Positions 23,806 through 39,433 of a stretch of 64,000 nt of DNA are shown here, piece by piece. A program made the translations under genes and the position numbers. The notes beneath the pieces were generated by a model. That model ran no database searches, was not told the DNA's origin, and saw only the letters and a program-made list of their open reading frames with translations. The stretch's first letter is position 1; each line of letters starts with the position of its first letter. The stretch is from the sequence record LC739536.1; one strand, written 5' to 3'. This stretch comes from Escherichia phage phiWec187.

Positions 23806-24780
23806 TTAAAGACTTTCAATAACTTGACGACGCAGTTCATTGGCATCTGCAAGATTATAATTAAGACGAACGTGTTCTGCAAGCATCATACCACGATCTT
23901 CTGTGTATCTAGGGTTCCTCATTAGCTTGACAACTTCATAATGCCAAGATGCTTTAGAGTCTGCATAGATAACAGCCTTTGCATCTACCGGATTGAAGTA
24001 CGGCAGCACAGGAGAACAGATAATAGGAAGACCCTTTGCACCTGCTTCCAAAATCTTCAAATTGCTTTTACAGTTGTTGAAGTCATTATCTACCAGAGGA
24101 GCAATTGCAATACTGTGACCGTCATACACAGACATATACTCACCTAAATTTTTAATAGCTGGTTTATACTGTGCATTTGGAATTTTACGTTTTACTTTAA
24201 CCCACTCCGCAGTAGTTAGATACTGACTATTATTTCCAACAGGTGCAGAAGGATACACTTCATACCCTGCAATTGTCAATAGCGTATCATCAAATGTATT
24301 AGCTACAAGAGATAAATCAGGTTCATGGCTTGCTCCTCCCGCCCAAATAATAGGCGTGTCAGAATAACGGTCTTTTGTCAAAGTAAATTGACCTTCGTCG
24401 TAAGGTAGTGCGTTTCTAATAACGACAACATTACGATTTAAATGACGAATTTTGTAAGCTAGGTATTCTGTTGTTACAGTAACCACATCTGCTAACTTAA
24501 TCATCTCTACAATAGTCTTTGAGTGATTAGTAAATACGCCAGCCATATAATGTTCAGGATTAAGCGAATAAAAATCATCTAAATCAACAATAATCTTAAC
24601 ACCTTGTGCCTTCAGGCGTTTAACCTCGTCTGATCCACGAGAATACACTCTATTAAAAACTAAAACGTCTTTCTTAGGTTTAAACGTATTTCCAGCAAAT
24701 GGCATTACAATACGATGGTAATCACAACCACTGCCTAACTTATTATCACACTTAAGTACAGGAGTATTAGGATTTACCAT
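23806..24780 (-). CDS. glycosyltransferase (GT-B/GT1-like), paralog B
   Basis: KSNLKILEAGAKGLPIICSP and shared DLDD/IAPLV blocks with paralog A; start set at ATG 24780 after AGGAGG. Confidence 0.5.
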   Translation of the reverse strand: MVNPNTPVLKCDNKLGSGCDYHRIVMPFAGNTFKPKKDVLVFNRVYSRGSDEVKRLKAQGVKIIVDLDDFYSLNPEHYMAGVFTNHSKTIVEMIKLADVVTVTTEYLAYKIRHLNRNVVVIRNALPYDEGQFTLTKDRYSDTPIIWAGGASHEPDLSLVANTFDDTLLTIAGYEVYPSAPVGNNSQYLTTAEWVKVKRKIPNAQYKPAIKNLGEYMSVYDGHSIAIAPLVDNDFNNCKSNLKILEAGAKGLPIICSPVLPYFNPVDAKAVIYADSKASWHYEVVKLMRNPRYTEDRGMMLAEHVRLNYNLADANELRRQVIESL

Positions 24781-25453
24781 ATTTTTGAGCCTCCTCATAA
24801 GAGATAAAAGTTTTACCATTGCGAAGATCCTCCAGTGATTGTTTATATTGTTCCCAGTTTACACCAATCCCCTGTTCTTTCTCTTCTTTTGACAGATTTG
24901 CAAAAGGTAAAGGATTGTCTCCAAACACATCGTCAGGATGGATAAACGCCATAATTCGAATAGGACATGGTACGCCGTGAATACCTCGGTTCAAACCTGC
25001 AAGTGGAACGCGCTGAATCCACTCTGCATCTTCATATCCATAACCGTGGGTGTATGAGCGGAAATAGCCAGCTTTCTCAATAACTGCACGGGAATACATA
25101 CCAAACTGGCACATGCCTAGCTCCCAAATAACTACTTCTCCTTCAATACCTTTTACTTTATCTTTAAAGTATTCAGGCATACCAAAGAAATCCCAACCAT
25201 TTTCCTTCGCCTGTTTTACAAAATATGTTTCCCAACCTGGAACAACAGGATAACAATCATCATCAAAAATAAACCAGTAGTCATACCCTTCATCATAAAA
25301 CTTTTTCATCAGTTCATTACGGGCATATGCAACACCTTTTCGTTCACGATCATACTGTACAACAAAAGTAGCATTAGGATCAGTTACAAGATAATCTTTA
25401 AGAGGACGCTTACCTACAGTAATAACACCAACACCAATTTTTGTATTTTCCAA
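24767..25453 (-). CDS. glycosyltransferase (GT-A/GT2-like)
   Basis: WFIFDDD (DxD-type) and GYGYEDAEW motifs typical of GT-A fold transferases. Confidence 0.55.
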   Translation of the reverse strand: MENTKIGVGVITVGKRPLKDYLVTDPNATFVVQYDRERKGVAYARNELMKKFYDEGYDYWFIFDDDCYPVVPGWETYFVKQAKENGWDFFGMPEYFKDKVKGIEGEVVIWELGMCQFGMYSRAVIEKAGYFRSYTHGYGYEDAEWIQRVPLAGLNRGIHGVPCPIRIMAFIHPDDVFGDNPLPFANLSKEEKEQGIGVNWEQYKQSLEDLRNGKTFISYEEAQKYGKS

Positions 25454-25462
25454 AATAACTCC

Positions 25463-26026
25463 TTAAATAATTTTATTCATGTCTTGACAATGTAAAAGGT
25501 GTGAAACAGCTTTTCTAGGATCATCATTACCTAAACGGTATGTGTGAAATAAATATAACCCACGTAGTAAACCTAGCCTTTTATTGTTAGCGTGCAATGC
25601 TTTAGAGAAAATTATATCAAACTGTATTGATCTTTCCTCAAAAGGAATTTCATTCCACAGACTCTTACGAAAGAGAAGAAAGAATCCTGCTAAGATAGCA
25701 TCTGTAGGTACTTCCTCTATTGAGTTTCCCCATTCTAGATGTGCTCTTTTTGCAATCTCAATGTGGTGTAATATATTCGGATCTTCACTTCTTTCATTAT
25801 TAAATAATTGATATGTTGATCCCAATCTGTTACAAGATGCACCAAGAACATCAAAATCAGGATTTGAACGGACAATTGATTCCAGCCAAGCAGGTTGTTC
25901 TGGAAGAAGAAACATTGTATCAATGTCTCTTAGGCAAATCCAACTATCTTCTGGTAAGACACTTATTGTGTCATTGATACCTTTTCCAATATCTCCAGAA
26001 AGATAGGGAGTTATGTGAAATATCAT
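25463..26026 (-). CDS. hypothetical protein, possible GT-A-like transferase
   Basis: 187 aa; CLRDIDTMFL could be a DxD-type motif; weak. Confidence 0.3.
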   Translation of the reverse strand: MIFHITPYLSGDIGKGINDTISVLPEDSWICLRDIDTMFLLPEQPAWLESIVRSNPDFDVLGASCNRLGSTYQLFNNERSEDPNILHHIEIAKRAHLEWGNSIEEVPTDAILAGFFLLFRKSLWNEIPFEERSIQFDIIFSKALHANNKRLGLLRGLYLFHTYRLGNDDPRKAVSHLLHCQDMNKII

Positions 26027-26083
26027 ACTCCCTCCGTATTATTACTTTAGCATTTTTAGACTAAAAAGTCCAAATGGTTTTAC

Positions 26084-26278
26084 CTATTGATTACGTTTTG
26101 CGAGTTCCATTTGGATAGCTAAACTGTGATCTCGTGCTTCCATATACTCTTTATATGTTTCATTAAGATGATCACGACAAACATCACGCAGTTTAATCAG
26201 TTTATCTGTAGGGATACCACTAAGATCATCCCAAGATTTTACAACTTCACCAGTATCATTGATCCCAATGGTTTTCAT
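26084..26278 (-). CDS. hypothetical small protein
   Basis: 64-aa ORF. Confidence 0.3.
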   Translation of the reverse strand: MKTIGINDTGEVVKSWDDLSGIPTDKLIKLRDVCRDHLNETYKEYMEARDHSLAIQMELAKRNQ

Positions 26279-26486
26279 CTACAACCTCCTTAATTGCTAC
26301 AGCACAGTTTTTGCAGATACACTGCCCTTTACCTTTAGAAATCTGGATGTAAGGTTCATTTTCATTTTCGCCCTTACGTGAGTCATATATTACAGAATTG
26401 AAGCACACAACGCAAATATTTTTTAAGATTGTATACTTATCAACTTTCTTTTTTGTTTTAAAGTTAACTTCAATAACATCAGCCAT
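26256..26486 (-). CDS. hypothetical small Cys-containing protein
   Basis: CVVCFN...CICKNC pattern; start moved to the internal Met to avoid overlap. Confidence 0.3.
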   Translation of the reverse strand: MADVIEVNFKTKKKVDKYTILKNICVVCFNSVIYDSRKGENENEPYIQISKGKGQCICKNCAVAIKEVVDENHWDQ

Positions 26487-26764
26487 CAGTGTAACACTCC
26501 CAGTATGTTGCTTTGTGACATAACCATAGAACATTCAACATTATCGTGACTACGTGAAAAACGTTCCCAAACATCTTCATCGACTCGTAAAGCTATACAA
26601 GGATAGACGTTATCATTGATCATTTCAATTGAATAAACATCCACATTGTCTTCGTCTTCGATGAACATCATTGCAAACTGTTCTAAATGTTTCCTAATGT
26701 AATGTACATCCTCTTCTGTAAGACCAATAACAAGATAACTTGCAACGATAACGCCATCTTTCAT
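26486..26764 (-). CDS. hypothetical protein
   Basis: 92-aa ORF. Confidence 0.35.
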   Translation of the reverse strand: MKDGVIVASYLVIGLTEEDVHYIRKHLEQFAMMFIEDEDNVDVYSIEMINDNVYPCIALRVDEDVWERFSRSHDNVECSMVMSQSNILGVLH

Positions 26765-26774
26765 CTATATCTCC

Positions 26775-27284
26775 TTAGCGATAGAATTGATGTTCTTTGT
26801 AGCGGTACACTAGAACCATATCTTTTTCCCAGTGTGCTCTTATTGTAGATTTTTTAAAGTATAATGCTCCTTTTGTAATATCTAATGCAATTCGTAATTC
26901 TGGAAAATGCGTATCGAGATAAAGTAGACGTTCTGCTATAGCCTTAGCTTCCTTCCACTTATCACGTTCCATAACGTTGAATGTCTTTGTGTAAGAGAAT
27001 TGTCCTTTTTGAAACAAAACTTCTTTTATAGTATCAGGGAAATATGAATCTCTAGCCCTATTCAATACTACATTACCAACAGCAGACATACCGCGCTTTC
27101 CTTGATTACGACTTTCTGCATAGATTGCACAAGCTAATAGATTTTCTTTACTATCACGCTTTGTACACTTGTGAACTACTTTAGCAGTTTTTACGTTTGC
27201 AGCTTCGGCTTGCGCCACAACAGGTGTAAATGTAAAAGCAGTTAAGGATAGTAACGCAATTGCGACAAAGGTTTTTATTGACAA
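26775..27284 (-). CDS. secreted cell-wall hydrolase (SleB/CwlJ-like)
   Basis: N-terminal signal peptide (MSIKTFVAIALLSLTAFTFTPVVAQA); AIYAESRNQGKRGMSAVGNVVLNRARDSYFPDTIKEVLFQKGQFS matches the SleB-type hydrolase core. Confidence 0.55.
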   Translation of the reverse strand: MSIKTFVAIALLSLTAFTFTPVVAQAEAANVKTAKVVHKCTKRDSKENLLACAIYAESRNQGKRGMSAVGNVVLNRARDSYFPDTIKEVLFQKGQFSYTKTFNVMERDKWKEAKAIAERLLYLDTHFPELRIALDITKGALYFKKSTIRAHWEKDMVLVYRYKEHQFYR

Positions 27285-27377
27285 ACTTGCCTCCTATTTT
27301 GTTAAACGAACTTTTATTGTAACACAGAAGAGGCTGTTTTGCAAGTGGAGGGGGGATTATCCCCCTCTTACACTCTG

Positions 27378-27980
27378 TTAGATATTGTAAACCTTCGTAT
27401 GAGTTACTACACCATCTTCTACAAAATCAATACGTTCTTGATCCGTAACTAGTGCAGACAACACTTTAAATTTAATTTTTACACGTTCAAAAGCTGGTTG
27501 ACCATCTTTAAGATAATTATGTTCGGTTGTCACTGTCTTGTTTACAAAATCAACTTTCGCTTTACCGTTTTCGCGTAGGTGGAATGTTTTTCCTGCTTTG
27601 TACACAATTTCAACATTACCTTCGAGAATAATTCCTTCAAAAAGTTCACCCTCTTCTTCATTTTCTTCACTTTTGAACAGACGACGAAACTCTTCCATAT
27701 CAAGATAAACAACATCTTCAGAATAACTATCAGTAAGGTATGTCTTACCATCCATTAACCCGAAATATTGCCAGATCGCAGAATAAACATCACTAGTTGA
27801 TCCAAGGGTTTCTCTGAGTTTAGTTCCACGGATTACTTCATAAACTTCAAAATTGAAACCAGACTGCAAAGCATCAAACAGTACATCACTAACTTCTACA
27901 GCATAATCTTGATTGTTGTCAACATCCACAAGAAAATTGCCGCTACGAATAAGTTTTTGACCTTCTAAAGTAATACCCAT
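27378..27980 (-). CDS. hypothetical protein
   Basis: 200-aa ORF adjacent to TerD. Confidence 0.4.
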   Translation of the reverse strand: MGITLEGQKLIRSGNFLVDVDNNQDYAVEVSDVLFDALQSGFNFEVYEVIRGTKLRETLGSTSDVYSAIWQYFGLMDGKTYLTDSYSEDVVYLDMEEFRRLFKSEENEEEGELFEGIILEGNVEIVYKAGKTFHLRENGKAKVDFVNKTVTTEHNYLKDGQPAFERVKIKFKVLSALVTDQERIDFVEDGVVTHTKVYNI

Positions 27981-27999
27981 TGTTTTCTCCTCTTTTATT

Positions 28000-28024
28000 T
28001 AAAATATGCGCCCCGAAGGGCGCT
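28000..28024 (-). terminator. rho-independent terminator after the TerD gene
   Basis: gcgccc-cgaa-gggcgc hairpin followed by a U-run on the minus strand. Confidence 0.55.
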
Positions 28025-28032
28025 ATGATTTA

Positions 28033-28629
28033 TTACTCGAACCAATCGTCGCCAGCGCCAAACGCTTTAACTACATCGTAAATGTCAAGCCCAGCTTTAC
28101 CCACACCATACGCTTTCAGTTTCCATTCGCTATCTTCTCGCACCAGGGAGGCAACGTGGCAAATGGTGTTACCTGCAAGTTCTGGAGCCAAGAAGTCAAA
28201 GTCCAGCAGTTCAACATTACGTTCATCATCGAAGATTTTAAGGAAACCTTCGGTAGCGTGACCAAGGCGTTTCTTACCCGTTTCGTCATCAATAGTAATT
28301 ACGAATGCAATTTCCTGTGCTTCAGCAGAGATATTATCCAGTGTAACATCAATCTGCTCCATCTGTCCTACACCATCACGAACATCTTCACCTGCAAAAG
28401 TAGAACGTTCAGGATCAAATTTCTGCGCGTAGCACACCAGGTGACGAGGAGACAACAGTTCCGGCAGACCAGATGCATTGTGTCGGCAAATCAGAGCACT
28501 AACATCCAGATCCAGTTTTTCGTTAGATTTCCAAGAGAATTCCAGACGAATGCGTTTCAGTGCTGGTGCAATCTTTTTCAGAGAAACTTTTTCGCTAGAA
28601 CCTTTTTTCAGGGAAATTTTCTGAGTCAT
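28033..28629 (-). CDS. terD: TerD-family protein
   Basis: Aligns by eye along its length to TerD: SLKKGSSEKVSLKK, LDLDVSALIC, IAFVITIDD, SEWKLKAYGVGKAG against SLSKGGNVSLSK, FDLDASAFLL, IIFVVTIHD, GEWKFRAVGQGYAG. Confidence 0.8.
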   Translation of the reverse strand: MTQKISLKKGSSEKVSLKKIAPALKRIRLEFSWKSNEKLDLDVSALICRHNASGLPELLSPRHLVCYAQKFDPERSTFAGEDVRDGVGQMEQIDVTLDNISAEAQEIAFVITIDDETGKKRLGHATEGFLKIFDDERNVELLDFDFLAPELAGNTICHVASLVREDSEWKLKAYGVGKAGLDIYDVVKAFGAGDDWFE

Positions 28630-28701
28630 AATTTATTATCTCCTTTGTTGTTAATTTACGTTGTCTATTTTACTAATCTTTTCTACAAAGTCAAGCGTTT
28701 T

Positions 28702-29496
28702 TTACGCTTTTGCTCCAAATTTTTTAACCCACTCACCAAACTCTTCGGATAGCAGTTTATCGTAAAGTTCTTCGTCAGACAAGGACAAATCTGCAATACC
28801 GATAAAATCAACATTATCGTATTCTTTTGCCAAGTCTTTCAGGAATTTAAAGTTTGCATTACCTACACCAACCATAAACCAGTAAACAGGCGTATTGCGG
28901 TGTTTGTTCAGTAAGCTACGTACTGCTGAAGTATCCATGTTCTCCCCGTCAGTTTGGAAGAAAATCATTGCAGGAGTACGATCAACTTGTGCATCAGTAT
29001 CTACAACCTGTTCTACAACAGTACGTGTTACTTCTACAAGTTCTTTTTTACCAGTTAGTTTAGCAAGGAAACCTTTAGCCGGAACTTCTTCATACTCAAC
29101 GACTTCGCGTGTAATATTTTTCATAGGTACACTACCGAAGTATGTATCATAGATCTCTTGCATTACTGGAGCATAAGCAGTACCACCGTTGATGCAAACA
29201 TTAGACATGCAAGAGCCGACATAATCATCATACACATCAGCCGTTGCAGGAGGCAGTTCAAAAGAAGAACTATTGAAAGCCCACATGTCAATCTGTGCAT
29301 TATCATCAAACTTCATACCAAACGGCAGTAGCTTACCTACAAAATCACTGACAGTGCCATCACGATATAGCTCACACATACTACCCGAAATATCTAAGGC
29401 GCTACCGACACGAAGAACAACATCGTTAATCTTTTTCTTACGCAGAGATACAGTAAGAGTCTCTTGACGTTTTTTAAGACTGATTTTATTGGACAT
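28702..29496 (-). CDS. vWA-domain protein (TerY-like)
   Basis: MIDAS motif DISGSM plus downstream FFQTDGENMD (TDG motif); N-terminal ISLKK..LTVSLRKK resembles the TerD N-terminus. Confidence 0.6.
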   Translation of the reverse strand: MSNKISLKKRQETLTVSLRKKKINDVVLRVGSALDISGSMCELYRDGTVSDFVGKLLPFGMKFDDNAQIDMWAFNSSSFELPPATADVYDDYVGSCMSNVCINGGTAYAPVMQEIYDTYFGSVPMKNITREVVEYEEVPAKGFLAKLTGKKELVEVTRTVVEQVVDTDAQVDRTPAMIFFQTDGENMDTSAVRSLLNKHRNTPVYWFMVGVGNANFKFLKDLAKEYDNVDFIGIADLSLSDEELYDKLLSEEFGEWVKKFGAKA

Positions 29497-29497
29497 A

Positions 29498-29767
29498 TTA
29501 TTTCTCCTTTTTGACTGTAATGTTAGTAACTTCTAAATCCACTTCTACCACTTCTATATCATATAAAATACAGTTAAGTTGACCTCTTTGTGAACCGTTC
29601 AGACACATTGCTTGGTTTGTATTAACCTTAATAAACACTAAGTTTCTGAACGTATCTAAACCAGCATCTTGATAGGCAAAATAATATACAAATGTATCAC
29701 CTGCGTCAAGTTCTCCAAAACATTTAGGTTCATATGATTCGTCGTCTTTGATATTAAATTTAAGCAC
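29498..29767 (-). CDS. hypothetical protein
   Basis: 89-aa ORF. Confidence 0.35.
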   Translation of the reverse strand: MLKFNIKDDESYEPKCFGELDAGDTFVYYFAYQDAGLDTFRNLVFIKVNTNQAMCLNGSQRGQLNCILYDIEVVEVDLEVTNITVKKEK

Positions 29768-30323
29768 TATCTTCTCCTTTACCTACTTTCAAGCCTAAAT
29801 AGAAAGCCTCTCTAGTGATTTTTTGCAACTCGTTTAAAGAGATAGTTACAACTAAATCATCTTCAATTTCTAGCTTTGAGTCTTCTTCTGTCTCAATGCA
29901 AGTATTATGCACTTTGTGGTAAGGATTGTCAACACGTTTAAATTTATTATTTTCAGTGCTGAAGAAGCAATCTGGATCTTCTTCCACATCACCCCAACCC
30001 TGGTTAGGATCTTCTTCAGATCTTTCTGTTGGGATCTCACCTGTAAAGTGCTCTTCTAATACCAGAGCAATCCCATCTCCAGGATCGGAAGAGAACATCA
30101 AATTACAAACTTCTTCCCAAGGCATAGACCACTTAAATCTTTTACGATTGCCATGTTTATCTTCTTCGTTAGAGAAAACACTACCATAGCTATCATAATT
30201 CCCATACATCTCTTCGACAACCTTACCACCTTTCAAAAGAAATAGGTAGCAAGGAGAGCCATCGAAAGAGGTAGAAAGAGCAGCATTACCAGACTCTTTG
30301 CACAAGAAACTAAAACACCCCAT
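29760..30323 (-). CDS. hypothetical acidic protein
   Basis: 187-aa ORF. Confidence 0.35.
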   Translation of the reverse strand: MGCFSFLCKESGNAALSTSFDGSPCYLFLLKGGKVVEEMYGNYDSYGSVFSNEEDKHGNRKRFKWSMPWEEVCNLMFSSDPGDGIALVLEEHFTGEIPTERSEEDPNQGWGDVEEDPDCFFSTENNKFKRVDNPYHKVHNTCIETEEDSKLEIEDDLVVTISLNELQKITREAFYLGLKVGKGEDSA

Positions 30324-30523
30324 TATACACCAGCCTTAAGATCAATTAAAGCCAAAGTTGTTTCAGAGTGTGTTTGCTCGTCTACAGGTGCAGTCATATG
30401 ATAATACAAAAAATCTTCGGCATCATACCAATCTGATTCTTGACCTTGTTTCCAACCATCAATGAAAGCATCTTCCATAATGGTTTGCAATTCTTCACGA
30501 GTTAAGTGAATATCTTTACTCAT
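30323..30523 (-). CDS. hypothetical small protein
   Basis: 66-aa ORF, translationally coupled. Confidence 0.3.
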   Translation of the reverse strand: MSKDIHLTREELQTIMEDAFIDGWKQGQESDWYDAEDFLYYHMTAPVDEQTHSETTLALIDLKAGV

Positions 30524-30756
30524 TACACATTCTCCTCTTTTACCAAGTCCATCGTTGAACTATCAAAACCATCTTTAGAAGAATAGGTATAGACAGAACG
30601 TAGTTCTCGCAGGACAGTGAATACATTAGGATCATCTAACCAAGCATCCTGGAGGAGAACATAACGATCTTCATTGTCATACTGAACAGCAATCATAGAA
30701 CCAGACAGTTTGTAAATTTTAATATTCATAATATATTTCTCCTTAAAGTAGACCAC
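30523..30756 (-). CDS. hypothetical small protein
   Basis: 77-aa ORF. Confidence 0.3.
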   Translation of the reverse strand: MVYFKEKYIMNIKIYKLSGSMIAVQYDNEDRYVLLQDAWLDDPNVFTVLRELRSVYTYSSKDGFDSSTMDLVKEENV

Positions 30757-31846
30757 GTTTAACAGTTTGAATCATACCATCTTCAAGAGATTGCACTTCT
30801 TGAATGTAATCAATACGCGCAGCACGGGCTTCAGTGTTGATTCGGTTAGTTTCTTCCAACATTTTAACTAAGTTTTCTTGATCGCGACGTAATGTTTCAA
30901 TATCCAATACTTGACGATTAGCAAGTTGTGTAGCTTCAATTTGGTTTTGTGCAGCCAGATCACTACCCATTGCAATAGCAGCATTAAATTCATTCAGCAC
31001 ATTGTTCTGTGTATCGGCTGCTTTCTTCTGGCGTAGACTTTCAATATACATAGAAAAGTTTGCAGAGTAAGCAGGGATAACATTATTCACAATATTACGG
31101 GCTGATCGCATCAAACTTGCAGATACTTTCTGCATACTTTGTACACGTGGCCCCATCTGAACACACAGTAAACGCAAGGCTTTCAGGTCTGCAATACGAA
31201 TTTCAAGCAGATCCATAGTATCACGAGTACGTTGACGCTCTTCTACTTCATTTTCAGGTAGTGTATTAAGGCGAACTTCTTCTTTTTCATAAGTAGCTGT
31301 TAGAAGCTCTATATCCCTGTTTAAGCTAAGAGCATATTTTGCAATAGCCTCTTCTAAACGTTGCAGATATCGTAAAGAATCTTCTTCTTTTTTCAAGTCT
31401 GTTTGTAGTGTCTTTACCAAACCTTCAATACGATTATTGATGGTGTCAAATTCACCAAACAAATCTTCTTTCATACCTAATACTTTCTTAACCAGTTTAC
31501 CTAAGCCTTTAGATTGTTTAATAGAGTTAGGATCAAGTTGCTTTGCTTGCTTAATAAGTGCAGTTAAACGTTCACTCATTTCATCCCCCTGAGATGAACG
31601 CTGGTGTTTAAGCACTTCAGCATTAAGGTTACGAAGAGTAAGTCCTGCATCAGCACCAACTTGTTCAATCTCTTCACGAGACATTGGAGGCAGCATTTGT
31701 ACAGGTCGTGCAACAGCAGGGGCATATACAGGGCTTGCATCCATAGCACTTGGAGCAAACAAAGACTTACTTTTTTCTGTTGTTGCCGTGAATACACTCA
31801 TTTCAGACGGTTTGCTTTTTACGGCACTGATAAAAGGACTGGACAT
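30743..31846 (-). CDS. coiled-coil protein, possibly TelA-like
   Basis: 367 aa, mostly helical/coiled-coil; size and neighbourhood (TerD, vWA, TerC) fit TelA but no motif was verified. Confidence 0.3.
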   Translation of the reverse strand: MSSPFISAVKSKPSEMSVFTATTEKSKSLFAPSAMDASPVYAPAVARPVQMLPPMSREEIEQVGADAGLTLRNLNAEVLKHQRSSQGDEMSERLTALIKQAKQLDPNSIKQSKGLGKLVKKVLGMKEDLFGEFDTINNRIEGLVKTLQTDLKKEEDSLRYLQRLEEAIAKYALSLNRDIELLTATYEKEEVRLNTLPENEVEERQRTRDTMDLLEIRIADLKALRLLCVQMGPRVQSMQKVSASLMRSARNIVNNVIPAYSANFSMYIESLRQKKAADTQNNVLNEFNAAIAMGSDLAAQNQIEATQLANRQVLDIETLRRDQENLVKMLEETNRINTEARAARIDYIQEVQSLEDGMIQTVKRGLL

Positions 31847-31914
31847 TCAATTTCCTCCGTATTCTTTAGTAGATGGTGATACCTCTGTACCACCATCATA
31901 ACACAAATTAAGTA

Positions 31915-32766
31915 TTAAACAAACATATCTAAATAATTTGTAGTAATAAATGCTCCATCTGCTTCCAGATTAACATAACCAGTAGCATTAGTGGTTAAGA
32001 AATCCAGATCGAAGGACTCTTTAACACCCCGTACCTCAACACGAGAGATATCGAATACAGGTAGTGTAACAGCCTCTTCGTGCAATACCGTACCTTTGTA
32101 GGTTGCCTTAATGATAAACTTGATATTACCCGTTCCAGCATCATACAAAACACTTTCAAACCCTTTGAGAGTATACTTATCACCAGAAGTGAAGTGCAAA
32201 GTTGCTTTGTTTACAGTACGTTTTTTACGAGGAGTTCCTTTCACACGTTTATGATCACTACGTTTTTTGTATTTAGGAATGAATACAAACGATACATTGT
32301 GAAGAAAGGTATCAACATCAAGGATTTTAATATCCTCTGTTGCAGCAAATTTTGAAGTTGTTGCATCAAAATGCTTTTCCCGGCGATCATACATAAAGAT
32401 ATCAAACCGATCTTCTAAATCAAACAAATTATGTATTTTAATTTCAGAATGCTTGCGCATTGCAGCAACCTTGAACTCTTCAAAACGTGGGTGTTCTACA
32501 AGTTCTTCAAGTTTTACACCAAAGACAGTATATTGCTTCGGAGTTTTTTCTGGTGTTGGCATTACAGAAGCATAATCACCGATTGCGCTCTTAAAGCAAA
32601 ATTGTTCTTGACCTGTATTTTTACCAACGAATTTACAGTATTCGTCATCGTGCATACTTTCCTGGGTAGTACCAACAAACTCAAAACCATCTTTATTCTT
32701 CTCAAGAATTTCTTGATTAAAGATCCAACCTTCCAGGCGATATACTTTACCAACTTCTAGTTTCAT
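31915..32766 (-). CDS. hypothetical protein
   Basis: 283-aa ORF. Confidence 0.4.
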   Translation of the reverse strand: MKLEVGKVYRLEGWIFNQEILEKNKDGFEFVGTTQESMHDDEYCKFVGKNTGQEQFCFKSAIGDYASVMPTPEKTPKQYTVFGVKLEELVEHPRFEEFKVAAMRKHSEIKIHNLFDLEDRFDIFMYDRREKHFDATTSKFAATEDIKILDVDTFLHNVSFVFIPKYKKRSDHKRVKGTPRKKRTVNKATLHFTSGDKYTLKGFESVLYDAGTGNIKFIIKATYKGTVLHEEAVTLPVFDISRVEVRGVKESFDLDFLTTNATGYVNLEADGAFITTNYLDMFV

Positions 32767-32801
32767 CTGTTTCTCCTTCTTATTTAATCTGTATTAAATT
32801 A

Positions 32802-33392
32802 TTAACGACGACGTGAGCTACTAAAACTACGTTTCGACGAAGAATAACTTTTCGAAGACTTACTATAAGAGCTAACAGGACTTGAGTAAGACTTACCAGC
32901 AGAGTAATCACTATTCACTTTTGTTGTTGATGGGCGTGAATACGTTTGTACACTTTGCTGCTTAATTGTGTTTTGTTTAGTGGTTGTATATGTATTTCCT
33001 TGTTTATCATAAAAACTATGCTTTTGTGTTGTATATGCTTTACTATTAGTTGTAGGAGCAGCGTTGTTATTGATAATTGTTGTATTGCTACCGCCATCTC
33101 TATAACCACCACCGCCACTATTACCACTCAACATATGACCAAGAAGCATACCTGTAGCGAACTCACCTACGCCAGAAGAACCACTGCCGCCTCCTTGAAC
33201 AACAACTGTTGAAGGTTGTGCAGGTGCTGCTTGAACAACTTGAGGTGCAGGCTGATTTACATATTGTTCATCTACCATCTGATTTGGTGTTTGTTGGTAA
33301 CGTTGGTTTTGTACATTTTCAGAATCATCACAACCTACCAGCAATGCACTACCTAATACAACTGCAACAATAAAAGATTTAATGTTTTTCAT
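32802..33392 (-). CDS. lipoprotein, low-complexity Ser/Gly/Thr-rich
   Basis: Start at MKNIKSF after GAGAGGG; signal peptide with lipobox LVGC; C-terminal Ser/Tyr/Lys-rich tail. Confidence 0.5.
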   Translation of the reverse strand: MKNIKSFIVAVVLGSALLVGCDDSENVQNQRYQQTPNQMVDEQYVNQPAPQVVQAAPAQPSTVVVQGGGSGSSGVGEFATGMLLGHMLSGNSGGGGYRDGGSNTTIINNNAAPTTNSKAYTTQKHSFYDKQGNTYTTTKQNTIKQQSVQTYSRPSTTKVNSDYSAGKSYSSPVSSYSKSSKSYSSSKRSFSSSRRR

Positions 33393-33585
33393 TTGTAACC
33401 CTCTCATTTAAAGTCTCAACACAATTTTTAAAATCTCTAGAGAAACAATACATCTGTTCTCCGTTCCTGTTGATAGTAATTGTATGGTTATCAATATATG
33501 TTGTCAAGATAAAAATCAAACAAAACAACCCTAGAGCAAAACAAATATTTTCAAACAGAATCCAAAGAACACGTAAAACCACCAT
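33379..33585 (-). CDS. small membrane protein
   Basis: 68 aa with hydrophobic stretch FALGLFCLIFILTTYI. Confidence 0.3.
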   Translation of the reverse strand: MVVLRVLWILFENICFALGLFCLIFILTTYIDNHTITINRNGEQMYCFSRDFKNCVETLNERVTNEKH

Positions 33586-33624
33586 CAGATCACCTCAATA
33601 AAGCCCCCGAAGGGGCTTAATGAA

Positions 33625-34602
33625 TTAAGCAACAGCCTGGTCTTCTTTTTCAGGGAAGATTAAACTTGCAATAACACCCAGCCCAAGAGTACCTAACACA
33701 ATATACATACTGATCGTCGGATCAATGTGTGCTGGTAGGAAACTCACTTTTGCGTGCAGAGTTTCTGCAAACGGATGATACATCAGTTTTACACCCACAA
33801 ATACCAGGACTACGATAACTGCTTTCTCCAGATGAACCAAATACTTCAGTGCAACACTAAGAACAAAGAACAGAGCACGTAAACCTAAGATAGCACAGAG
33901 CATCGAAGAGAACACCAGCAGAGGTTCTTGTGTCACTGCAATCACTGCTGGAACAGAGTCTACTGCAAAGATTACGTCAACCATTTCCATTACAAACACA
34001 CAAACCAGAGCCGGAGTTGCTACACGAACACCATTTTTGATTGTGAAGAACTTCTCACCATCCATCTGATCAGATACAGGGAACAGCTTACGAACAATGC
34101 GAGTAGCCCAGTGTTTAGAGTAATCAACTTCTGCATCATTATCTCCAGCGAATACCATTTTAGCCGCACAGAAAAGGATGACCGCACCGAAGAAGATATT
34201 AACATACCAGCCCAAACTCAACAAGTAAGTGCCTACTGCTACAAACACACCTCGGAAGACAATCGCACCTGCAATACCCCAAAGTAGAATCTTGTGCTGC
34301 AAGTGTGTGCTTTTAATACCAAAACTTGCGAATACTGCCACAAATACTACTAAGTTATCTACAGAAAGAGATTTCTCCAACACATACCCACTTAAGAACA
34401 AGCTCGCAAAATCAGCACCGTGTTGGAAGTATACAAAACCATAGTAGGCTAATGATACCCCAATCCAGAAAATTGACCAGCCAATTGCAGATTTAAATGA
34501 AATTTCTTTGTTTTCTCTGTGTCCAAAGAAATCAATACAAATCGACAAGACTAAAATACCCACTAAAACAACCACATCAATAATTGGGAAACCCAGTTGC
34601 AT
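33625..34602 (-). CDS. terC: TerC-family integral membrane protein
   Basis: Multiple TM helices plus the two TerC signature blocks LEKSLSVDNLVVFVAVF and VIFAVDSVPAVIAVTQEPLLVFSSMLCAILGLRAL. Confidence 0.8.
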   Translation of the reverse strand: MQLGFPIIDVVVLVGILVLSICIDFFGHRENKEISFKSAIGWSIFWIGVSLAYYGFVYFQHGADFASLFLSGYVLEKSLSVDNLVVFVAVFASFGIKSTHLQHKILLWGIAGAIVFRGVFVAVGTYLLSLGWYVNIFFGAVILFCAAKMVFAGDNDAEVDYSKHWATRIVRKLFPVSDQMDGEKFFTIKNGVRVATPALVCVFVMEMVDVIFAVDSVPAVIAVTQEPLLVFSSMLCAILGLRALFFVLSVALKYLVHLEKAVIVVLVFVGVKLMYHPFAETLHAKVSFLPAHIDPTISMYIVLGTLGLGVIASLIFPEKEDQAVA

Positions 34603-34679
34603 TCTTTTCTCCTCTTTAATGCGGAGGACAATCCTCCGCTCTATGTCTTATACTATAAACTGTTTTTAAAGAAAGTCAA

Positions 34680-34928
34680 CTAGTTCAGTTCTGTAATTTT
34701 AAGTTTATCTTCTTTGTTAATGATAGGGAAAGCTACAGCATCACCTACATCATCAATAAAGCAAATAGCAAGACCACCTTCCACTTTGCTAACCTGACCA
34801 TTAAAGGCATGATACGGGGCAGGAACTTCATCTCCATCTTCAATGAGAATAGCCTCGTAAACCTTGCCGATAGTACAATCACGGGTGTTTATAAATTTTT
34901 CAAGCACTTCAACATTTACTTTACGCAT
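34680..34928 (-). CDS. hypothetical protein
   Basis: 82-aa ORF. Confidence 0.35.
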   Translation of the reverse strand: MRKVNVEVLEKFINTRDCTIGKVYEAILIEDGDEVPAPYHAFNGQVSKVEGGLAICFIDDVGDAVAFPIINKEDKLKITELN

Positions 34929-34942: not shown

Positions 34943-35149
34943 TTATTTGTTAGATTGAAAGATACCACGGAGTACCGCAAGAATGAACGTCACACAGACT
35001 ACACTCCAAAACGTTACAGGAACATGATGCCAGTCTAAGCCGATAATGTCAATCATATAATTGTATGCTAAAAGCAGTAGCCAACTAGGGATTAACACAA
35101 TCAAGAACACAACAATAAAACAACCTAATACTGCTAAAACACCTGCCAT
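34943..35149 (-). CDS. small membrane protein
   Basis: 68 aa, two predicted TM helices. Confidence 0.35.
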   Translation of the reverse strand: MAGVLAVLGCFIVVFLIVLIPSWLLLLAYNYMIDIIGLDWHHVPVTFWSVVCVTFILAVLRGIFQSNK

Positions 35150-35158: not shown

Positions 35159-35875
35159 TTATTTCAGTTTGTAAACAATTACATTTAAACCTTTGTTTAC
35201 TAGAGTTTCTTCGATCATAAGTTTTACAATATTCCAAGAACCTCCAGCCAAACCACAACCAAGCATTGGTAAACCTACAATTTTACCGCCTGAAGATACA
35301 ACATCGTCTCCCATACTATCTAGCGCATTGTAGATAGCTTCATAATTCAGGTCACGCTTACCTTCCTCACGACGACTATAACCATATTGTCCATATAAAT
35401 TATAAATTGTCAAATTGTTTTCTGTATATTTGGTAAACGTACCTAATTTTTTATAATCACCACGTTTAGTGGCACAATCTGCTTTAAACGCACCAGGCCA
35501 CTTGCTTTTAATTTTTGGTGCAATACCACTACCCATAGTGCAAAAACAGTTACAGCAGTGTGCTATAGCGTCTATATCGCCTCTCTCGGCTGCTGCTAAA
35601 AGATCACCGTATACCTCAATGATACCTGCTGGATAACTTGTTACAATTTCATCTTCCCAGTACATTTTCTCTACACCACCGATCAGTGCAAAGTTTTGTG
35701 TAATGCGATCATCAATATAGTTAAGCCCTGAAACATACACAGCGTATTCATCCTGTGCTGTAATACCTTGCACACGAATTCTTAAGACACCATCTTTATC
35801 TGTTGCTACACGCCCAAAATCTTTTTCTGTAATATTGGTGATAGGATCTCCGAAAGTCATTACTTTATTAGACAT
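35159..35875 (-). CDS. macro-domain protein (ADP-ribose binding/processing)
   Basis: AIAHCCNCFCTMGSGIA and GLPMLGCGLAGG resemble the paired Gly-rich loops of macro domains; start at ATG 35875 after AAAGGGGA. Confidence 0.55.
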   Translation of the reverse strand: MSNKVMTFGDPITNITEKDFGRVATDKDGVLRIRVQGITAQDEYAVYVSGLNYIDDRITQNFALIGGVEKMYWEDEIVTSYPAGIIEVYGDLLAAAERGDIDAIAHCCNCFCTMGSGIAPKIKSKWPGAFKADCATKRGDYKKLGTFTKYTENNLTIYNLYGQYGYSRREEGKRDLNYEAIYNALDSMGDDVVSSGGKIVGLPMLGCGLAGGSWNIVKLMIEETLVNKGLNVIVYKLK

Positions 35876-36725
35876 AATAATCCCCTTTAACATTAGATTT
35901 GTTGATAATGTTGCTTTCAAAAAATTGACGTAGGAAATCAAAGTTCTCTTTGTATTTTTCAATGTTATTGTAACCTTCTGCAAGGCAACCAAAGAACAGT
36001 TGTTCTACATAATACAAAGGAAGTTGTGAAAGTGCAATTTTAAAATCAACTTCGCTTTGACTCATTAGATACTTAATAGGACGAACCAAACATTTAGCAT
36101 CAGTTTCTTGCTTAATCATTTTAATAAAAGCTGCCAGATTATTGATATAGTTGAAGTTAAGTGCAGCTTCGGTATTGGCTTCTGTACCTTCATACTTTGC
36201 AAAGTACAGGAAAAACGTATCGTTTTCAACACCTTCTTTGTCTAAAATTTCAATAAGTTTTTCTTCGTGTGTTCCTGTAATATTAACATCATCAATGAAA
36301 ATCAGAGTTTTATTACCCCAGAAATCACGATTGATAGAGAAAGTGTCACCATCGATCAAAGCCTTACGATCTTCTTTGCTAAGAAATCCATAATCATTGA
36401 TATAACTCACTTTACGATGAACGATATCCCACTCCACTGCTTTACCTCCTTTGATAGAGATTAGGTAGTTGAGGTGATCTACAAAATGCTCAGATAACAC
36501 TGTAGCTGCATTTTTCACATAATTATATGGAGATGGAATAACAACAAAACTTTCATTTACTAGTCGTTCTTCATATTTAGAAAAGAAACTTTCAGCTAGA
36601 ATGCGTCCCATTCTTTTTGCTGCCTGGTTACTGCCAAACTTTAGTTTGGAATAATCTGCAATGTTAAATTTTGCTTCCTTCAGGTTAGTAAAAGTATTAG
36701 CAAAATGTTGAATTTGATTACGCAT
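35868..36725 (-). CDS. phosphoribosyltransferase-like protein (type I PRTase fold)
   Basis: TLIFIDDVNITGTHEE matches the PRPP-binding motif (hydrophobic run, DD, xxTGxT). Confidence 0.5.
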   Translation of the reverse strand: MRNQIQHFANTFTNLKEAKFNIADYSKLKFGSNQAAKRMGRILAESFFSKYEERLVNESFVVIPSPYNYVKNAATVLSEHFVDHLNYLISIKGGKAVEWDIVHRKVSYINDYGFLSKEDRKALIDGDTFSINRDFWGNKTLIFIDDVNITGTHEEKLIEILDKEGVENDTFFLYFAKYEGTEANTEAALNFNYINNLAAFIKMIKQETDAKCLVRPIKYLMSQSEVDFKIALSQLPLYYVEQLFFGCLAEGYNNIEKYKENFDFLRQFFESNIINKSNVKGDYYV

Positions 36726-37392
36726 TAATAAGTTCCTCTTTTTTAAGTTTAGCCAACAAGTCTTCTGGATTAATAATATGACAGAACTTCATCCCTATGT
36801 CAACAGCTTTTCCATCATAAATCAAACTATCTCCAACGTGTAAAATCTCCTCTGGTGCGAGATCAAACGTTACCATTTCATCAAAAGAGAGTTTAAAAAA
36901 CCTAGGATCTGGTTTACACAAGCAAAACTCATCAGAAAAATGCATAAAGTCAAATGGTAATTTTGTTAAGCCAGAATATACAGCTAAGAAACTACCTGGT
37001 ACAAAATTAGTATTGCTCTTAATACTCAAAGAATAGGTTGAACTTAGCTCTTCCAACTTCTTGCAAAGTTCAGGGTTCAATATTGGAGGATGTTTTATAA
37101 ACATTGCTAAACAGTCTCTTTTTAACCCATCCACTTTATCAAGATCAATGTTCAAACGAGTAGAAAGTGTTTCCCAAGCATTCCTAGACGTTCCACAAAT
37201 GCCTTTTTCTGCTTTTAAATCCAGGAGAGTTTTTACCTCTTTATATACGGTAGCTGCTTCTGCCTCAGAACAAGAGGCATACTCGGCAATAACCTTGTTG
37301 CGTTCTTCTGCATACAAAGGATTAGCAGTAATAAGAGTATTCCATACATCAAAAGAAATATGCTTAACAGTCATTTTTAATCCTCCGTCCAA
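36718..37392 (-). CDS. HAD-like hydrolase
   Basis: N-terminal ISFDVWNTL (variant HAD motif I) and C-terminal ILHVGDSLIYDGKAV (GDxxxD motif). Confidence 0.4.
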   Translation of the reverse strand: MDGGLKMTVKHISFDVWNTLITANPLYAEERNKVIAEYASCSEAEAATVYKEVKTLLDLKAEKGICGTSRNAWETLSTRLNIDLDKVDGLKRDCLAMFIKHPPILNPELCKKLEELSSTYSLSIKSNTNFVPGSFLAVYSGLTKLPFDFMHFSDEFCLCKPDPRFFKLSFDEMVTFDLAPEEILHVGDSLIYDGKAVDIGMKFCHIINPEDLLAKLKKEELINA

Positions 37393-37781: not shown

Positions 37782-38942
37782 TTAGTAAGAACGACCACCA
37801 AACACATACTCTGTGTAGTTTTTACGTTCTTTGTTTTTAATAACAACTTCAATGTTGTTGCCTTTATCATCGGTGAACACAAAGTGATAACCGTCACCAC
37901 CCATTGTACGGATGTGTTTTTCATCATACGTCAGCAAGATACGGTCTACACCCCAGTAGTAGTCACCTTCTTCGTCTTTATCTTCTACGGTAACGACTCC
38001 TTCCATTTCAGGAAGATGCTCTTCTCCTGACTTATGATCTACAGCTACAACATAACGATTACCGCTAAACAAACCTTGTGCTGTCATACCGTCAATATCT
38101 GTATCTGACGAAACATCTCCTGTACGATCTACACCGTTAACTTTCAGAAGTTTAACTTCTTTTGCAGCATAGCGGTGTTCAGTAATACTGATACCCATTA
38201 ATGCAAGTGCATCAGAGAATTTGTCATTAGGGTAACGGTTAAGTTCTTCTACTAATGACTGAACAATATCAAAGTTCAAGTCCACGGAAAGATTATAAAG
38301 CGTTTCAAAATCTGGTAAAAAGGCTTTGTTCTCCAGATTTTTAGCCAGATAGTCATCCATAGTAGCTTTAGGTAGTTTCTTATAGCTAAAGCTGTAGAAA
38401 ATACGGCTAGGACGATTACGCAAAAATTCTGATACATAACCATCGTTTTTAGTCAATACAAACAGCTTGTCGTAGCCACCTACACCATCCAGCAGGGTAA
38501 GCAAGCCATCCTGTGCATCTTTTTCAGCATACAGTTTATCAAATTCATCGATCATAATCATCACAGGTTGTGTGATTTTAGACATAAAATTGATAAAGCC
38601 TTCGCCATTAAAAGCACTACCGATAGAAATAGTAGGAATACCCATTTCACGAAGAGCAGAAGACAGCATTTTAGCTTGCAAAGTTTTACCGCTACCCTTC
38701 GTACCCTCAAGGAGAACACCTGTGTTTTTACCTTTGCGGCTAAGGAACGTCTTGATAATACGTTCTGATTTATCATCAGTATCACCGTATGTTACTGAAG
38801 GGACTTCCATATCGTTTTTAGGATACAGGAAGAACTCACCACTTTGAGTAACACCTACACCAAAAGTTCCTGCTGGAATTTCTTCAATATCTGTACCAGA
38901 CTTCTGACGCAGGAAGATTTGATTGCCGAATACTGTAAACAT
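37782..38942 (-). CDS. P-loop ATPase, paralog 1
   Basis: Walker A GTKGSGKT, Walker B IMIDEFDK; clearly homologous along its length to the 54446-55573 ORF. Confidence 0.6.
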   Translation of the reverse strand: MFTVFGNQIFLRQKSGTDIEEIPAGTFGVGVTQSGEFFLYPKNDMEVPSVTYGDTDDKSERIIKTFLSRKGKNTGVLLEGTKGSGKTLQAKMLSSALREMGIPTISIGSAFNGEGFINFMSKITQPVMIMIDEFDKLYAEKDAQDGLLTLLDGVGGYDKLFVLTKNDGYVSEFLRNRPSRIFYSFSYKKLPKATMDDYLAKNLENKAFLPDFETLYNLSVDLNFDIVQSLVEELNRYPNDKFSDALALMGISITEHRYAAKEVKLLKVNGVDRTGDVSSDTDIDGMTAQGLFSGNRYVVAVDHKSGEEHLPEMEGVVTVEDKDEEGDYYWGVDRILLTYDEKHIRTMGGDGYHFVFTDDKGNNIEVVIKNKERKNYTEYVFGGRSY

Positions 38943-38962: not shown

Positions 38963-39433
38963 TTAGTCAGATTCCCAAATGTTGTCTTTCTTAATCCACA
39001 TTCGTTGATTATCTGAACCTCTATAACGTTTCGTTGTTGGTTGATTCATATCATACTTACCATCTATCACTATGTCAACCAGTTTTTTAATTTTTTCTGG
39101 AATTTCCTCAAAAAGATATCCTGTATATAAGACAATATCTTTTTTGTTTCCAAAACAATCTCTTACCTTCTCAAGAACATACTCTACAGTGTCAATGTTC
39201 TCTTTGTCAAGAGGTTCACCACCTAAAACTGTTAATCCTTTAATGAAAGGTCGAGATAAATCTTTCAAGATAAGATCTAATGTTTCAGTAGTGAACTCTT
39301 GTCCGTGGTTATACGACCAGGCTTTCTGGTTAAAGCAGCCACGGCAACCGTGGCTACAACCGCTCACCCACAAAGAGCATCTTACACCGTCACCGTTGAG
39401 CATGTCAACAGGTTCATATCCGGCGTAATTCAA
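38963..39433 (-). CDS. nrdG: anaerobic ribonucleotide reductase activating protein (radical SAM)
   Basis: CSLWVSGCSHGCRGC Cys cluster near the N-terminus; 156 aa; immediately downstream of nrdD. Confidence 0.8.
   Translation of the reverse strand: MNYAGYEPVDMLNGDGVRCSLWVSGCSHGCRGCFNQKAWSYNHGQEFTTETLDLILKDLSRPFIKGLTVLGGEPLDKENIDTVEYVLEKVRDCFGNKKDIVLYTGYLFEEIPEKIKKLVDIVIDGKYDMNQPTTKRYRGSDNQRMWIKKDNIWESD

Follow-up and report, generated by a model that had tools for sequence, protein, structure and literature searches.

Possible envelope-directed roles of a predicted exported SleB-like hydrolase and a predicted lipoprotein encoded beside the Ter genes of Escherichia phage phiWec187

What are a cell-wall hydrolase and a lipoprotein, both apparently destined for the host envelope, doing beside the Ter genes of a virulent coliphage? 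We addressed this question in Escherichia phage phiWec187, in a window of 64,000 nucleotides (nt) from sequence record LC739536.1 in which the two genes delimit positions 26775-33392. They are homologs of gp170 (the hydrolase) and gp180 (the lipoprotein) of phage phi92, and the genes of the region are named here after their phi92 equivalents, which were taken gene by gene from the records of phages Paula and phi92. In the reading that we favor, to which we assign a probability of about 0.5, the block is an envelope-directed accessory region that combines a complete Ter system with gp170 as an auxiliary endolysin and gp180 as an envelope-protecting lipoprotein of the inner membrane. Gene identities, motifs, conservation, genomic surroundings and the existence of other lysis genes are observed; export, localization, timing and the functions of the two proteins are deduced from them. 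A first-pass annotation of this DNA had described a secreted SleB/CwlJ-type hydrolase with a signal peptide and a lipobox lipoprotein with a Ser/Tyr/Lys-rich low-complexity tail, both on the strand of the Ter module, and had supposed that such phage proteins often act in envelope remodeling or superinfection exclusion rather than lysis; the description is borne out by the features reported below, whereas the supposition fares less well. The features concerned are:

26775-27284, minus strand: gp170 homolog, predicted exported hydrolase of 169 residues
27284-27207, minus strand: gp170 signal peptide, residues 1-26, recognized from sequence features
32802-33392, minus strand: gp180 homolog, predicted lipoprotein of 196 residues

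Copies at least 95% identical to the hydrolase are found in 54 phage records, and the same holds for the lipoprotein (54 records), so that both are real conserved genes and not chance open reading frames (ORFs). Both are already annotated in GenBank, the lipoprotein as a hypothetical protein with a signal peptide. The hydrolase belongs to a kind that is already known and annotated, the SleB-like "second lytic protein" with an export signal, and the phage Ter cluster is likewise already known. The parts of the 2026 phi92 structure paper reached by a term look-up contain no mention of gp170, gp180 or a cell wall hydrolase.

The gp170 homolog matches the Pfam family Hydrolase_2 (PF07486) over residues 61-168, with E=6.5e-20 and 72.1 bits against a gathering cut-off of 27. 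In phmmer alignments the catalytic Glu of SleB (motif YGE in PDB 4F55/4FET), which we take to be E151 in B. anthracis numbering, aligns with E57 of gp170, and E57, C40 and C52 are invariant among 19 gp170 homologs (61-98% identity). The score against the SleB equivalog TIGR02869 is 51.9 bits, far under the cut-off of 236.5 and with an alignment confined to the catalytic part, and therefore gp170 is a member of the Hydrolase_2 family and not a SleB orthologue. With the SleB/CwlJ spore cortex-lytic enzymes of Bacillus it has the catalytic domain family in common (Y-G-E in SleB, Y-A-E57 in gp170); unlike Bacillus SleB, it has no N-terminal peptidoglycan-binding domain (no PG_binding match in the Pfam scan), carries a Sec signal peptide, belongs to a phage of Gram-negative bacteria and would face a substrate that lacks muramic delta-lactam. 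These features suggest that gp170, as a mature protein of 16.8 kDa with an isoelectric point (pI) of 9.7, is a lytic transglycosylase of the SleB type. Two points weigh against this assignment. First, the AlphaFold2 (AF2) model of gp170 is poor (predicted local distance difference test, pLDDT, 61) and the top three PDB matches in Foldseek, although all SleB, are weak (best probability 0.82, E=0.01, TM-score 0.28-0.35), so that modeling and structure search add nothing to the Pfam match. Second, SleB requires muramic delta-lactam, and activity of gp170 on ordinary peptidoglycan is thus assumed, the sole support for an activity of this type being the toxicity (unpublished) of a Certrevirus homolog, CB7_83.

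The N-terminus of gp170, MSIKTFVAIALLSLTAFTFTPVVAQA followed after the predicted cleavage site by EA, divides into a basic n-region (MSIK), a 16-residue h-region within the segment FVAIALLSLTAFTFTP (KD15, on the Kyte-Doolittle (KD) scale, of 2.07) and VVAQA before the first Glu, with Pro at -6 and Ala at -3 and -1. This is the make-up of a Sec signal cleaved by signal peptidase I, namely a basic n-region, an h-region of 7-20 residues and small residues at -3/-1. We infer that gp170 is exported by Sec and cleaved after A-Q-A, and C40 and C52, beside the active site, would fit a disulfide formed in the periplasm. The c-region of the signal peptide is just 54% pairwise identical, yet the small residues at -3/-1 are kept in the 19 homologs. 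Cleavable signal peptides unrelated in sequence are carried by the homologs of the rV5-like phage nomo, Septuagintavirus A7_1, the T5-like phage IrmaTschudi and a divergent 153-kb metagenomic relative (L012), and in the PAK_P1 homolog a membrane anchor replaces the cleavable peptide. Because every lineage examined keeps an export signal despite unrelated sequences, export appears to be a conserved property of these hydrolases. Weighing against this, the phi92 record has no sig_peptide feature on gp170, though it has one on gp180.

A signal-anchor-release (SAR) endolysin was considered and rejected for gp170, whose h-region has no Gly and which has a clear A-x-A site and Pro at -6. As a separate observation, 39 nt coding for the h-region are identical, synonymous sites included, between the phi92-like window (27207-27284, minus strand) and a phAPEC8-like phage (locus L005, 9001-9078). 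The phi92-like and phAPEC8-like hydrolases are about 75% identical overall, with 84% pairwise identity in the h-region versus 70% in the mature part; recombination or an RNA-level constraint near the TTG start could account for the identical stretch. As a SAR-like sign this conservation was also rejected, being at the nucleotide level and in two genera only, with an unrelated signal peptide in L012.

Is gp170, then, the enzyme that lyses the host? The fully annotated phi92-like phage muut encodes a Phage_lysozyme (GH24) protein of 166 residues without a hydrophobic N-terminus. Along its entire length this protein shares about 50% identity with the T4/T2 gene e lysozyme, and copies at least 95% identical to it are found in 55 phage records. 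An i-spanin gene and an overlapping o-spanin gene (lipobox MTGC followed by Ala) adjoin the terminase gene of muut (locus L003, 6968-7399 and 6733-7062). Since a T4 e-type lysozyme and a spanin pair are thus present elsewhere in the genus, gp170 is not the main endolysin. A canonical lysis-cassette endolysin was likewise rejected: the neighbors of the gene are TerD and gp171 on one side and three small soluble ORFs on the other, with the GH24 and spanin genes elsewhere. In six lineages the gene of the exported hydrolase lies among replication or early genes and never in a lysis cassette. Against giving this position much weight, the GH24 lysozyme gene also lies among early-type genes, and gene position alone therefore cannot separate the two enzymes.

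Exported hydrolases of this family beside another lytic enzyme are described in several phage groups. In rV5, Gp89 was termed the "obvious lysin" beside an exported Hydrolase_2 protein (PMC3606486); "two lytic proteins" are mentioned for Phapecoctavirus (PMC10793346); exported Hydrolase_2 proteins accompany another endolysin in Certrevirus (PMC7344957) and Septuagintavirus (PMC11370258); and the T5-like phage AKFV33 has lysozyme, holin and SleB-like hydrolase genes all in its early region (PMC3326045). The Certrevirus homolog CB7_83 has a signal peptide and was toxic when expressed in E. coli (PMC7344957). Like gp170, CB7_83, CR3_087, AKFV33 ORF81 and nomo_28 (Vequintavirinae/T5-like; 35-41% identical to gp170) combine a signal peptide and an early position with a separate endolysin, whereas the gene neighbors differ: rIIA/rIIB in rV5-like phages, a candidate holin in Certrevirus and TerD at gp170. 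In rV5-like phages, as seen in nomo (locus L006, 7995-10474), the end of the gene for the exported SleB-like enzyme runs into the start of rIIA, and rIIB comes next, a conserved tie to membrane-associated lysis-timing genes. A gene backbone common with the rV5-like phages was rejected, as the AAA protein of the window shows no similarity to the MoxR ATPase encoded upstream of the rV5-like hydrolase.

The closest studied analog is Tgl of the Kayvirus phages, and for this reason we favor an auxiliary role in lysis. This lytic transglycosylase has an A-x-A signal peptide and is secreted by Sec, and the host polymerase can transcribe its gene in the manner of early genes. It kills E. coli solely when its signal peptide is present, lysis needs dissipation of the proton-motive force unless the protein is overproduced, and its authors read it as an additional endolysin alongside the late endolysin LysK (PMC7150955). 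Tgl and Lys44 of the Oenococcus phage fOg44 resemble gp170 in their A-x-A signal peptide and Sec export, and Tgl also in being an extra enzyme beside a canonical endolysin. They differ from it in their unrelated fold (Slt/RPF-like or other) and Gram-positive hosts. Gene position differs as well: a few genes separate tgl from lysK and the holin gene, but the GH24 and spanin genes are a long way from gp170. By this analogy gp170 is most likely an auxiliary, pre-positioned second lysis enzyme. It would be made at a low level; with a conserved TTG start and its own sigma-70-type promoter, it would probably be transcribed by the host RNA polymerase before the late genes. After Sec export, cleavage behind A-Q-A and oxidation of C40-C52, it may wait in the periplasm as a basic SleB-type lytic transglycosylase, near-inert, like Tgl or Lys44, while the membrane is energized. 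Once the holin fires, gp170 would cut glycan strands together with the released T4 e-type lysozyme and the spanins.

The expression signals on which the timing of this model depends are:

27316-27344, minus strand: sigma-70-like promoter TTGCAA-17-TGnTACAAT, intergenic, upstream of the hydrolase gene (consensus match)
27348-27367, minus strand: G+C-rich stem-loop GAGGGGG-ATAAT-CCCCCCTC, after the gp171 stop codon, no T-run
33479-33507, minus strand: sigma-70-like promoter TTGACA-17-TACAAT (11/12), inside the gp181 coding sequence, about 90 nt before the lipoprotein start

In L012 and in phi92-like and phAPEC8-like phages the start codon of the hydrolase gene is TTG, preceded by a strong AGGAGG site; in rV5-like phages it is GTG. 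Its promoter-like element is kept in the phAPEC8-like phage UP17 (TTGCAA-17-TATACT), and the stem-loop in both Paula and UP17. The lipoprotein starts with MKNIK at 33392, 6 nt behind the ribosome-binding site GAGAGGG, and sigma-70-like elements 60-90 nt 5' of its gene occur in four lineages (equivalents in UP17, the locus L014 and L012). Between 20 and 44 kb, 21 sigma-70-like sites of at least 10/12 lie on the coding (minus) strand versus 2 on the plus strand; at 60-64 kb the ratio is 9 on plus versus 0 on minus, and the tail-fiber region (1-14 kb) is without such bias. This strand bias suggests host-polymerase promoters throughout the non-structural blocks. Weighing against it, the total number of sigma-70-like matches in the region is not above that of shuffled sequence (57 versus 48.9 +/- 6.7), and the temporal class of gp170 rests on consensus promoter matches. 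Taking the conserved promoter element and the strand bias together with this total count, we consider early or middle transcription of gp170 by the host RNA polymerase likely.

The strongest rival takes gp170 for a non-lytic periplasmic remodeler of peptidoglycan, which would loosen or re-tailor the sacculus and contribute nothing to lysis; it might alter the susceptibility to incoming tail lysozymes, make room for envelope complexes or serve muropeptide recycling. The early-type position and promoter, the weak start codon and the separate endolysin that is always present too are all as expected for such an enzyme, and so is its neighborhood: membrane-stress genes (Ter; in L012 Band_7) accompany it in Stephanstirmvirinae-like phages, and in rV5-like phages rIIA/rIIB follow immediately. 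However, the linkage to Ter is not general, and we know of no phage example of a purely remodeling secreted transglycosylase. The first-pass annotation had set such proteins apart from lysis, which is not supported: Tgl, the only such analog studied by experiment, acts in lysis as an additional endolysin (PMC7150955), and CB7_83 is toxic on expression in E. coli (PMC7344957). The envelope-remodeling reading stays a live rival, though a rather unlikely one. That gp170 is instead the principal, holin-independent endolysin (of signal-peptide or SAR type), with the GH24 enzyme secondary, would agree with the label "endolysin" given by PHROG 938 and RefSeq, but it is very improbable given the full-length T4 e orthologue genus-wide, the T5-like phages that have a homolog plus their own lysozyme and holin genes, the absence of an adjacent membrane-protein gene in phi92-like phages (the three downstream ORFs have no transmembrane segment), the N-terminus, which is neither Gly-rich nor SAR-like and has an A-x-A site, and the weak TTG start, ill-suited to such a role.

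We turn to the lipoprotein. In gp180 the N-terminal MKNIK is followed by SFIVAVVLGSALL and by the lipobox L-V-G-C21, which fits the pattern [LVI][ASTVI][GAS]C, with Asp22-Asp23 behind it; residues 1-20 form the predicted signal peptide of a lipoprotein, and the phi92 GenBank record likewise gives a SignalP 3.0 signal peptide of 20 residues. Cys21 is invariant, and Asp at +2 is found in at least 90%, among 29 close homologs. The mature chain consists of an acidic Gln/Pro linker, a Gly-zipper-like core SGVGEFATGMLLGHMLSG, a TTIINNN motif and a basic Ser/Thr/Tyr/Lys tail that ends in SSSRRR; in close relatives the Gln/Pro-rich linker and the TTIINNN motif recur, the core consensus is SG-VG[DE]FATGM[IL]LGHM[ML]SG and the tails, of Ser/Tyr/Lys/Arg, also end in SSSRRR. 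The half next to the membrane is acidic, with a pI of 4.1, and the tail (residues 111-196: 23 Ser, 12 Thr, 10 Lys, 8 Tyr, 5 Arg) has a net charge of +13 and a pI of 10.3. Conservation is lowest in the signal peptide (42%) and highest in the core (78%) and the last 36 residues (82%). The AF2 model, built from 29 sequences, is disordered (pLDDT 44) and offers no fold to search. A KD scan found no hydrophobic segment beyond the signal peptide, and the Gly-zipper-like motif, with a hand-calculated mean KD of about 0.9 over 16 residues, is too weakly hydrophobic to span the membrane.

In E. coli, Asp at +2, strengthened by Asp, Glu, Asn or Gln at +3, is the Lol-avoidance signal; the +2/+3 rule for retention in the inner membrane reportedly goes back to work by Yamaguchi in 1988, Seydel in 1999 and Terada in 2001. 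C21-D22-D23 of gp180 conforms to this rule, and because of Asp+2 and Asp+3 we predict a lipoprotein lipidated at Cys21 and held in the inner membrane, with a disordered chain reaching into the periplasm. Weighing against this prediction, the Asp+2 rule is specific to E. coli, the phAPEC8-like homolog has Glu-Asp, and 60% of the wider family have another residue at +2 (Asp in 66/165, 40%).

Close relatives of gp180 form 28 clusters, on contigs that are all phage-sized (140-155 kb) or short, and those examined have Ter genes. A profile search of 1.84 billion representatives gave 246 clusters (50% identity, E<=0.001) with the same layout as gp180, and among 187 family sequences retrieved a lipobox is present in 88%, while 90% have two or more basic residues at the C-terminal end. 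Pfam and NCBIfam gave no match at E<=10 beyond sub-threshold noise, and PADLOC has no model for the family. The core motif was found at just 5 loci in a scan of 185,579 species genomes. A tblastn search with two distant relatives against isolate phages gave no match, probably through the low-complexity filter. All contexts examined are phage- or prophage-derived, with the gene in early or moron positions: three are 48-52-kb phages with amidoligase/GATase/ATP-grasp clusters, one of which (L025) has T7-like primase-helicase and DNA polymerase A genes within the locus; another is a P22-like podophage with the lipoprotein gene beside a helix-turn-helix gene and a tailspike gene; and a further one is a prophage-like element of Burkholderia cenocepacia with T7-like primase-helicase and DNA polymerase A genes. 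The Rouxiella badensis plasmid pSP2 (CP114059.1, 116 kb) carries two copies (L016 and L017); in the plasmid-borne prophage of L016, an embedded Rz/Rz1-like spanin pair precedes the lipoprotein gene by about 1.3 kb, and in lambda the slot downstream of Rz/Rz1 is taken by bor. Taken together, the family is sizeable, uncurated and almost phage-only, a modestly new result.

Two groups of bacterial lipoproteins resemble gp180. The glycine-zipper lipoproteins (SlyB/PCP, OsmB, YfgH) are small and have a hydrophobic motif of the G-x3-G-x3-G type, but gp180 gave no match to Gly-zipper family hidden Markov models. YgiB (DUF1190) has a lipobox, a Gln/Pro-rich linker, an F..M.G[HY]MM.G motif and a low-complexity tail; homology to DUF1190 (YgiB/YjfM) was rejected, since hhalign covers the lipobox alone with a probability of 6%, and we retain it as a resemblance.

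What could such a protein do? The lipid on Cys21 and Asp+2/Asp+3 would anchor it in the outer leaflet of the inner membrane, from where about 175 disordered residues may reach into the periplasm; their proximal half is acidic and their distal tail strongly basic, with a short hydrophobic Gly-zipper-like motif between the two. For an early or moron-type envelope protein of this kind, acting in this lineage with the small membrane protein gp181, the likeliest role would be to protect the envelope or inner membrane of the infected cell, for instance by stopping superinfecting phages when they reach the inner membrane. That gp180 serves in superinfection exclusion or envelope protection is a guess. 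Other phage envelope proteins, early or prophage-expressed, include the outer-membrane lipoproteins Llp of T5 and Cor of phi80/N15, the inner-membrane proteins Imm/Sp of T4 and SieA of P22, and Ltp of S. thermophilus; relatives of gp180 sit in moron slots of the same kind as these exclusion proteins. In contrast, gp180 has no sequence similarity to any of them and no receptor-blocking fold, and is by prediction a disordered protein retained in the inner membrane. Asp+2, as an inner-membrane signal, argues against masking of outer-membrane receptors of the Llp/Cor type, and the data are compatible with exclusion or protection at the level of the inner membrane. A bolder proposal, which we put forward as speculative and improbable, is that gp180 is the first recognized member of a disordered phage lipoprotein family forming a new injection-blocking class at the periplasmic face of the inner membrane, and that the SleB-like enzymes form a widespread "second endolysin" class in Gram-negative virulent phages; the Cys-Asp-Asp anchor (in enterobacterial phages), the Gly-zipper-like motif and the protamine-like Ser/Arg C-terminus would then serve, for example, to bind incoming DNA or the ejection channel.

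The partner gene bears on two other explanations:

33379-33585, minus strand: gp181 homolog, single-pass membrane protein of 68 residues, two Cys in its C-terminal part

This gene overlaps the start of the lipoprotein gene by 14 nt. The gp181 protein is a partner solely in the phi92/phAPEC8-like lineage and L014, and a gp181-like protein as universal companion of the lipoprotein was rejected, the upstream genes being unrelated elsewhere. L014 and the phi92-like and phAPEC8-like phages all keep the genes for TerC, the small transmembrane protein and the lipoprotein in this order, as would be expected if gp180 and gp181 were a structural or regulatory part of the Ter membrane-stress system, for example tethering TerC/TelA assemblies to the periplasmic face. 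Yet in L012 the lipoprotein gene has a different upstream gene and is found past the hydrolase, some 9 kb downstream of TerC (TerC ends at 933, the lipoprotein gene starts at 10001). Around family members in five other phages or prophages no Ter gene is present within about 8 kb, and the lipoprotein gene has its own promoter-like element in four lineages; we find this explanation doubtful. A spanin-like or lysis-regulatory pair, as the overlap of a single-pass membrane protein gene with a lipoprotein gene in the manner of i-spanin/o-spanin might suggest, is the least credible explanation of all, because genuine spanins are encoded elsewhere, Asp+2 predicts inner-membrane retention, mature gp180 has no Cys whereas o-spanins usually contain one, and gp181 has 68 residues, no coiled coil and no conservation as a partner outside the lineage.

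Do the hydrolase and the lipoprotein work together? Their genes are close together in three Stephanstirmvirinae-like lineages, with a shuffled order in L012. Since rV5- and T5-like phages have the hydrolase but no lipoprotein, and other phages have relatives of the lipoprotein but no hydrolase, the two are not a functional pair; the best view is of two accessory genes, independent of each other and both directed at the envelope, in an accessory region that also contains the Ter system. That region comprises, besides the genes listed above:

37782-38942, minus strand: gp190, AAA ATPase
36718-37392, minus strand: gp187, HAD hydrolase
35868-36725, minus strand: gp186, PRTase_3
35159-35875, minus strand: gp185, Macro domain
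between gp185 and the TerC gene, minus strand: gp184 and gp183, two small ORFs
33625-34602, minus strand: gp182, TerC-family integral membrane protein, with a stem-loop after the gene
31915-32766, minus strand: gp179 homolog, 283 residues, function not assigned
30743-31846, minus strand: gp178, TelA family (PF05816, 5e-34)
29498-29767, 29760-30323, 30323-30523 and 30523-30756, minus strand: gp177-gp174 homologs, four conserved small or medium ORFs without assigned function
28702-29496, minus strand: gp173, vWA-TerF-like (PF10138, 1e-38)
28033-28629, minus strand: gp172, TerD-domain protein (PF02342, 5e-28)
27378-27980, minus strand: gp171 homolog, 200 residues, function not assigned (PHROG 22473)

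The hydrolase, lipoprotein, TerC, TelA, vWA-TerF-like and TerD genes are thus all on the minus strand, and the GC skew is negative over 14-52 kb, as expected of a single long leftward block. TerC, TelA, TerD and a vWA protein (TerF/TerY-like) are co-located with PRTase and HAD genes, the make-up of a complete Ter system, and the Macro, PRTase_3 and HAD genes (35159-37392, minus strand) are its metabolite-synthesis arm. The same Ter gene set is present in UP17 and L012. Ter clusters were reportedly treated by Anantharaman, Iyer and Aravind in 2012. Full Ter systems of this make-up are described for bacteria and some phages in the passages retrieved from two reports (PMC7824862, PMC8386662), where phage clusters are proposed to counter superinfecting phages. 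The phage clusters of these passages (PMC7824862; phiKp34, PMC8386662) have TerC, TelA, vWA-TerF-like, TerD, PRTase and HAD genes in a virulent phage in common with the window, and the same passages mention no associated exported hydrolase or lipoprotein. A PADLOC scan of ten block proteins and an Rfam scan of the entire window gave zero matches.

Some other observations concern the surroundings. Positions 26000-34700 match Escherichia phages Antha, VivaForever and muut at 99.3% identity and some 50 further Justusliebigvirus genomes (phi92-like, Stephanstirmvirinae) at 98-99%; the MG0656xx records titled "Campylobacter phage" (host C. jejuni), 98.5% identical over 8.7 kb, are probably contaminants or mislabeled. 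Two genes upstream of TerC, the gp184 homolog (34943-35149, minus strand; 68 residues) is shaped like a class II holin: it contains two hydrophobic segments, and its C-terminus is basic. The C-terminal half of the gp179 homolog is common to a phAPEC8-like protein of 197 residues. The gp171 gene is missing from phAPEC8-like phages, and in L012 (6174-7457), between TerD and the hydrolase, its place is taken by a Band_7 (SPFH) membrane protein and a 117-residue protein with bactofilin-like "VSGDV" repeats, more membrane-scaffold proteins in the block. Downstream of the hydrolase gene, three small soluble ORFs are followed by a run of glycosyltransferase genes (23806-26026, minus strand), of which 24767-25453 has a sub-threshold match to a TET-associated glycosyltransferase (PF20691, E=6.8e-5); muut also has dTDP-rhamnose synthesis genes elsewhere, and the target could be DNA, the virion or a host glycan. 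Finally, an HNH/NUMOD endonuclease ORF (40524-41033) interrupts nrdD (anaerobic ribonucleotide reductase; 39430-41998, minus strand) at the point that corresponds to position 263 of Pfam NRDD; a spliced nrdD variant is annotated as gp192A in the phi92 record, and the Rfam intron families are all below threshold.

Neither the hydrolase nor the lipoprotein result alters current concepts. If the gp170-type enzymes are pre-secreted auxiliary endolysins, many large coliphages would lyse their host with two muralytic enzymes that have different access routes. As such an enzyme would reach the sacculus unaided and is reported to be toxic, this may bear on lysis timing and on the search for antibacterial enzymes, and phi92-, phAPEC8-, rV5- and T5-like phages are all used in therapy cocktails. 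A role for the lipoprotein family, with its 246 clusters and moron positions, would fill a gap among phage envelope and exclusion factors.

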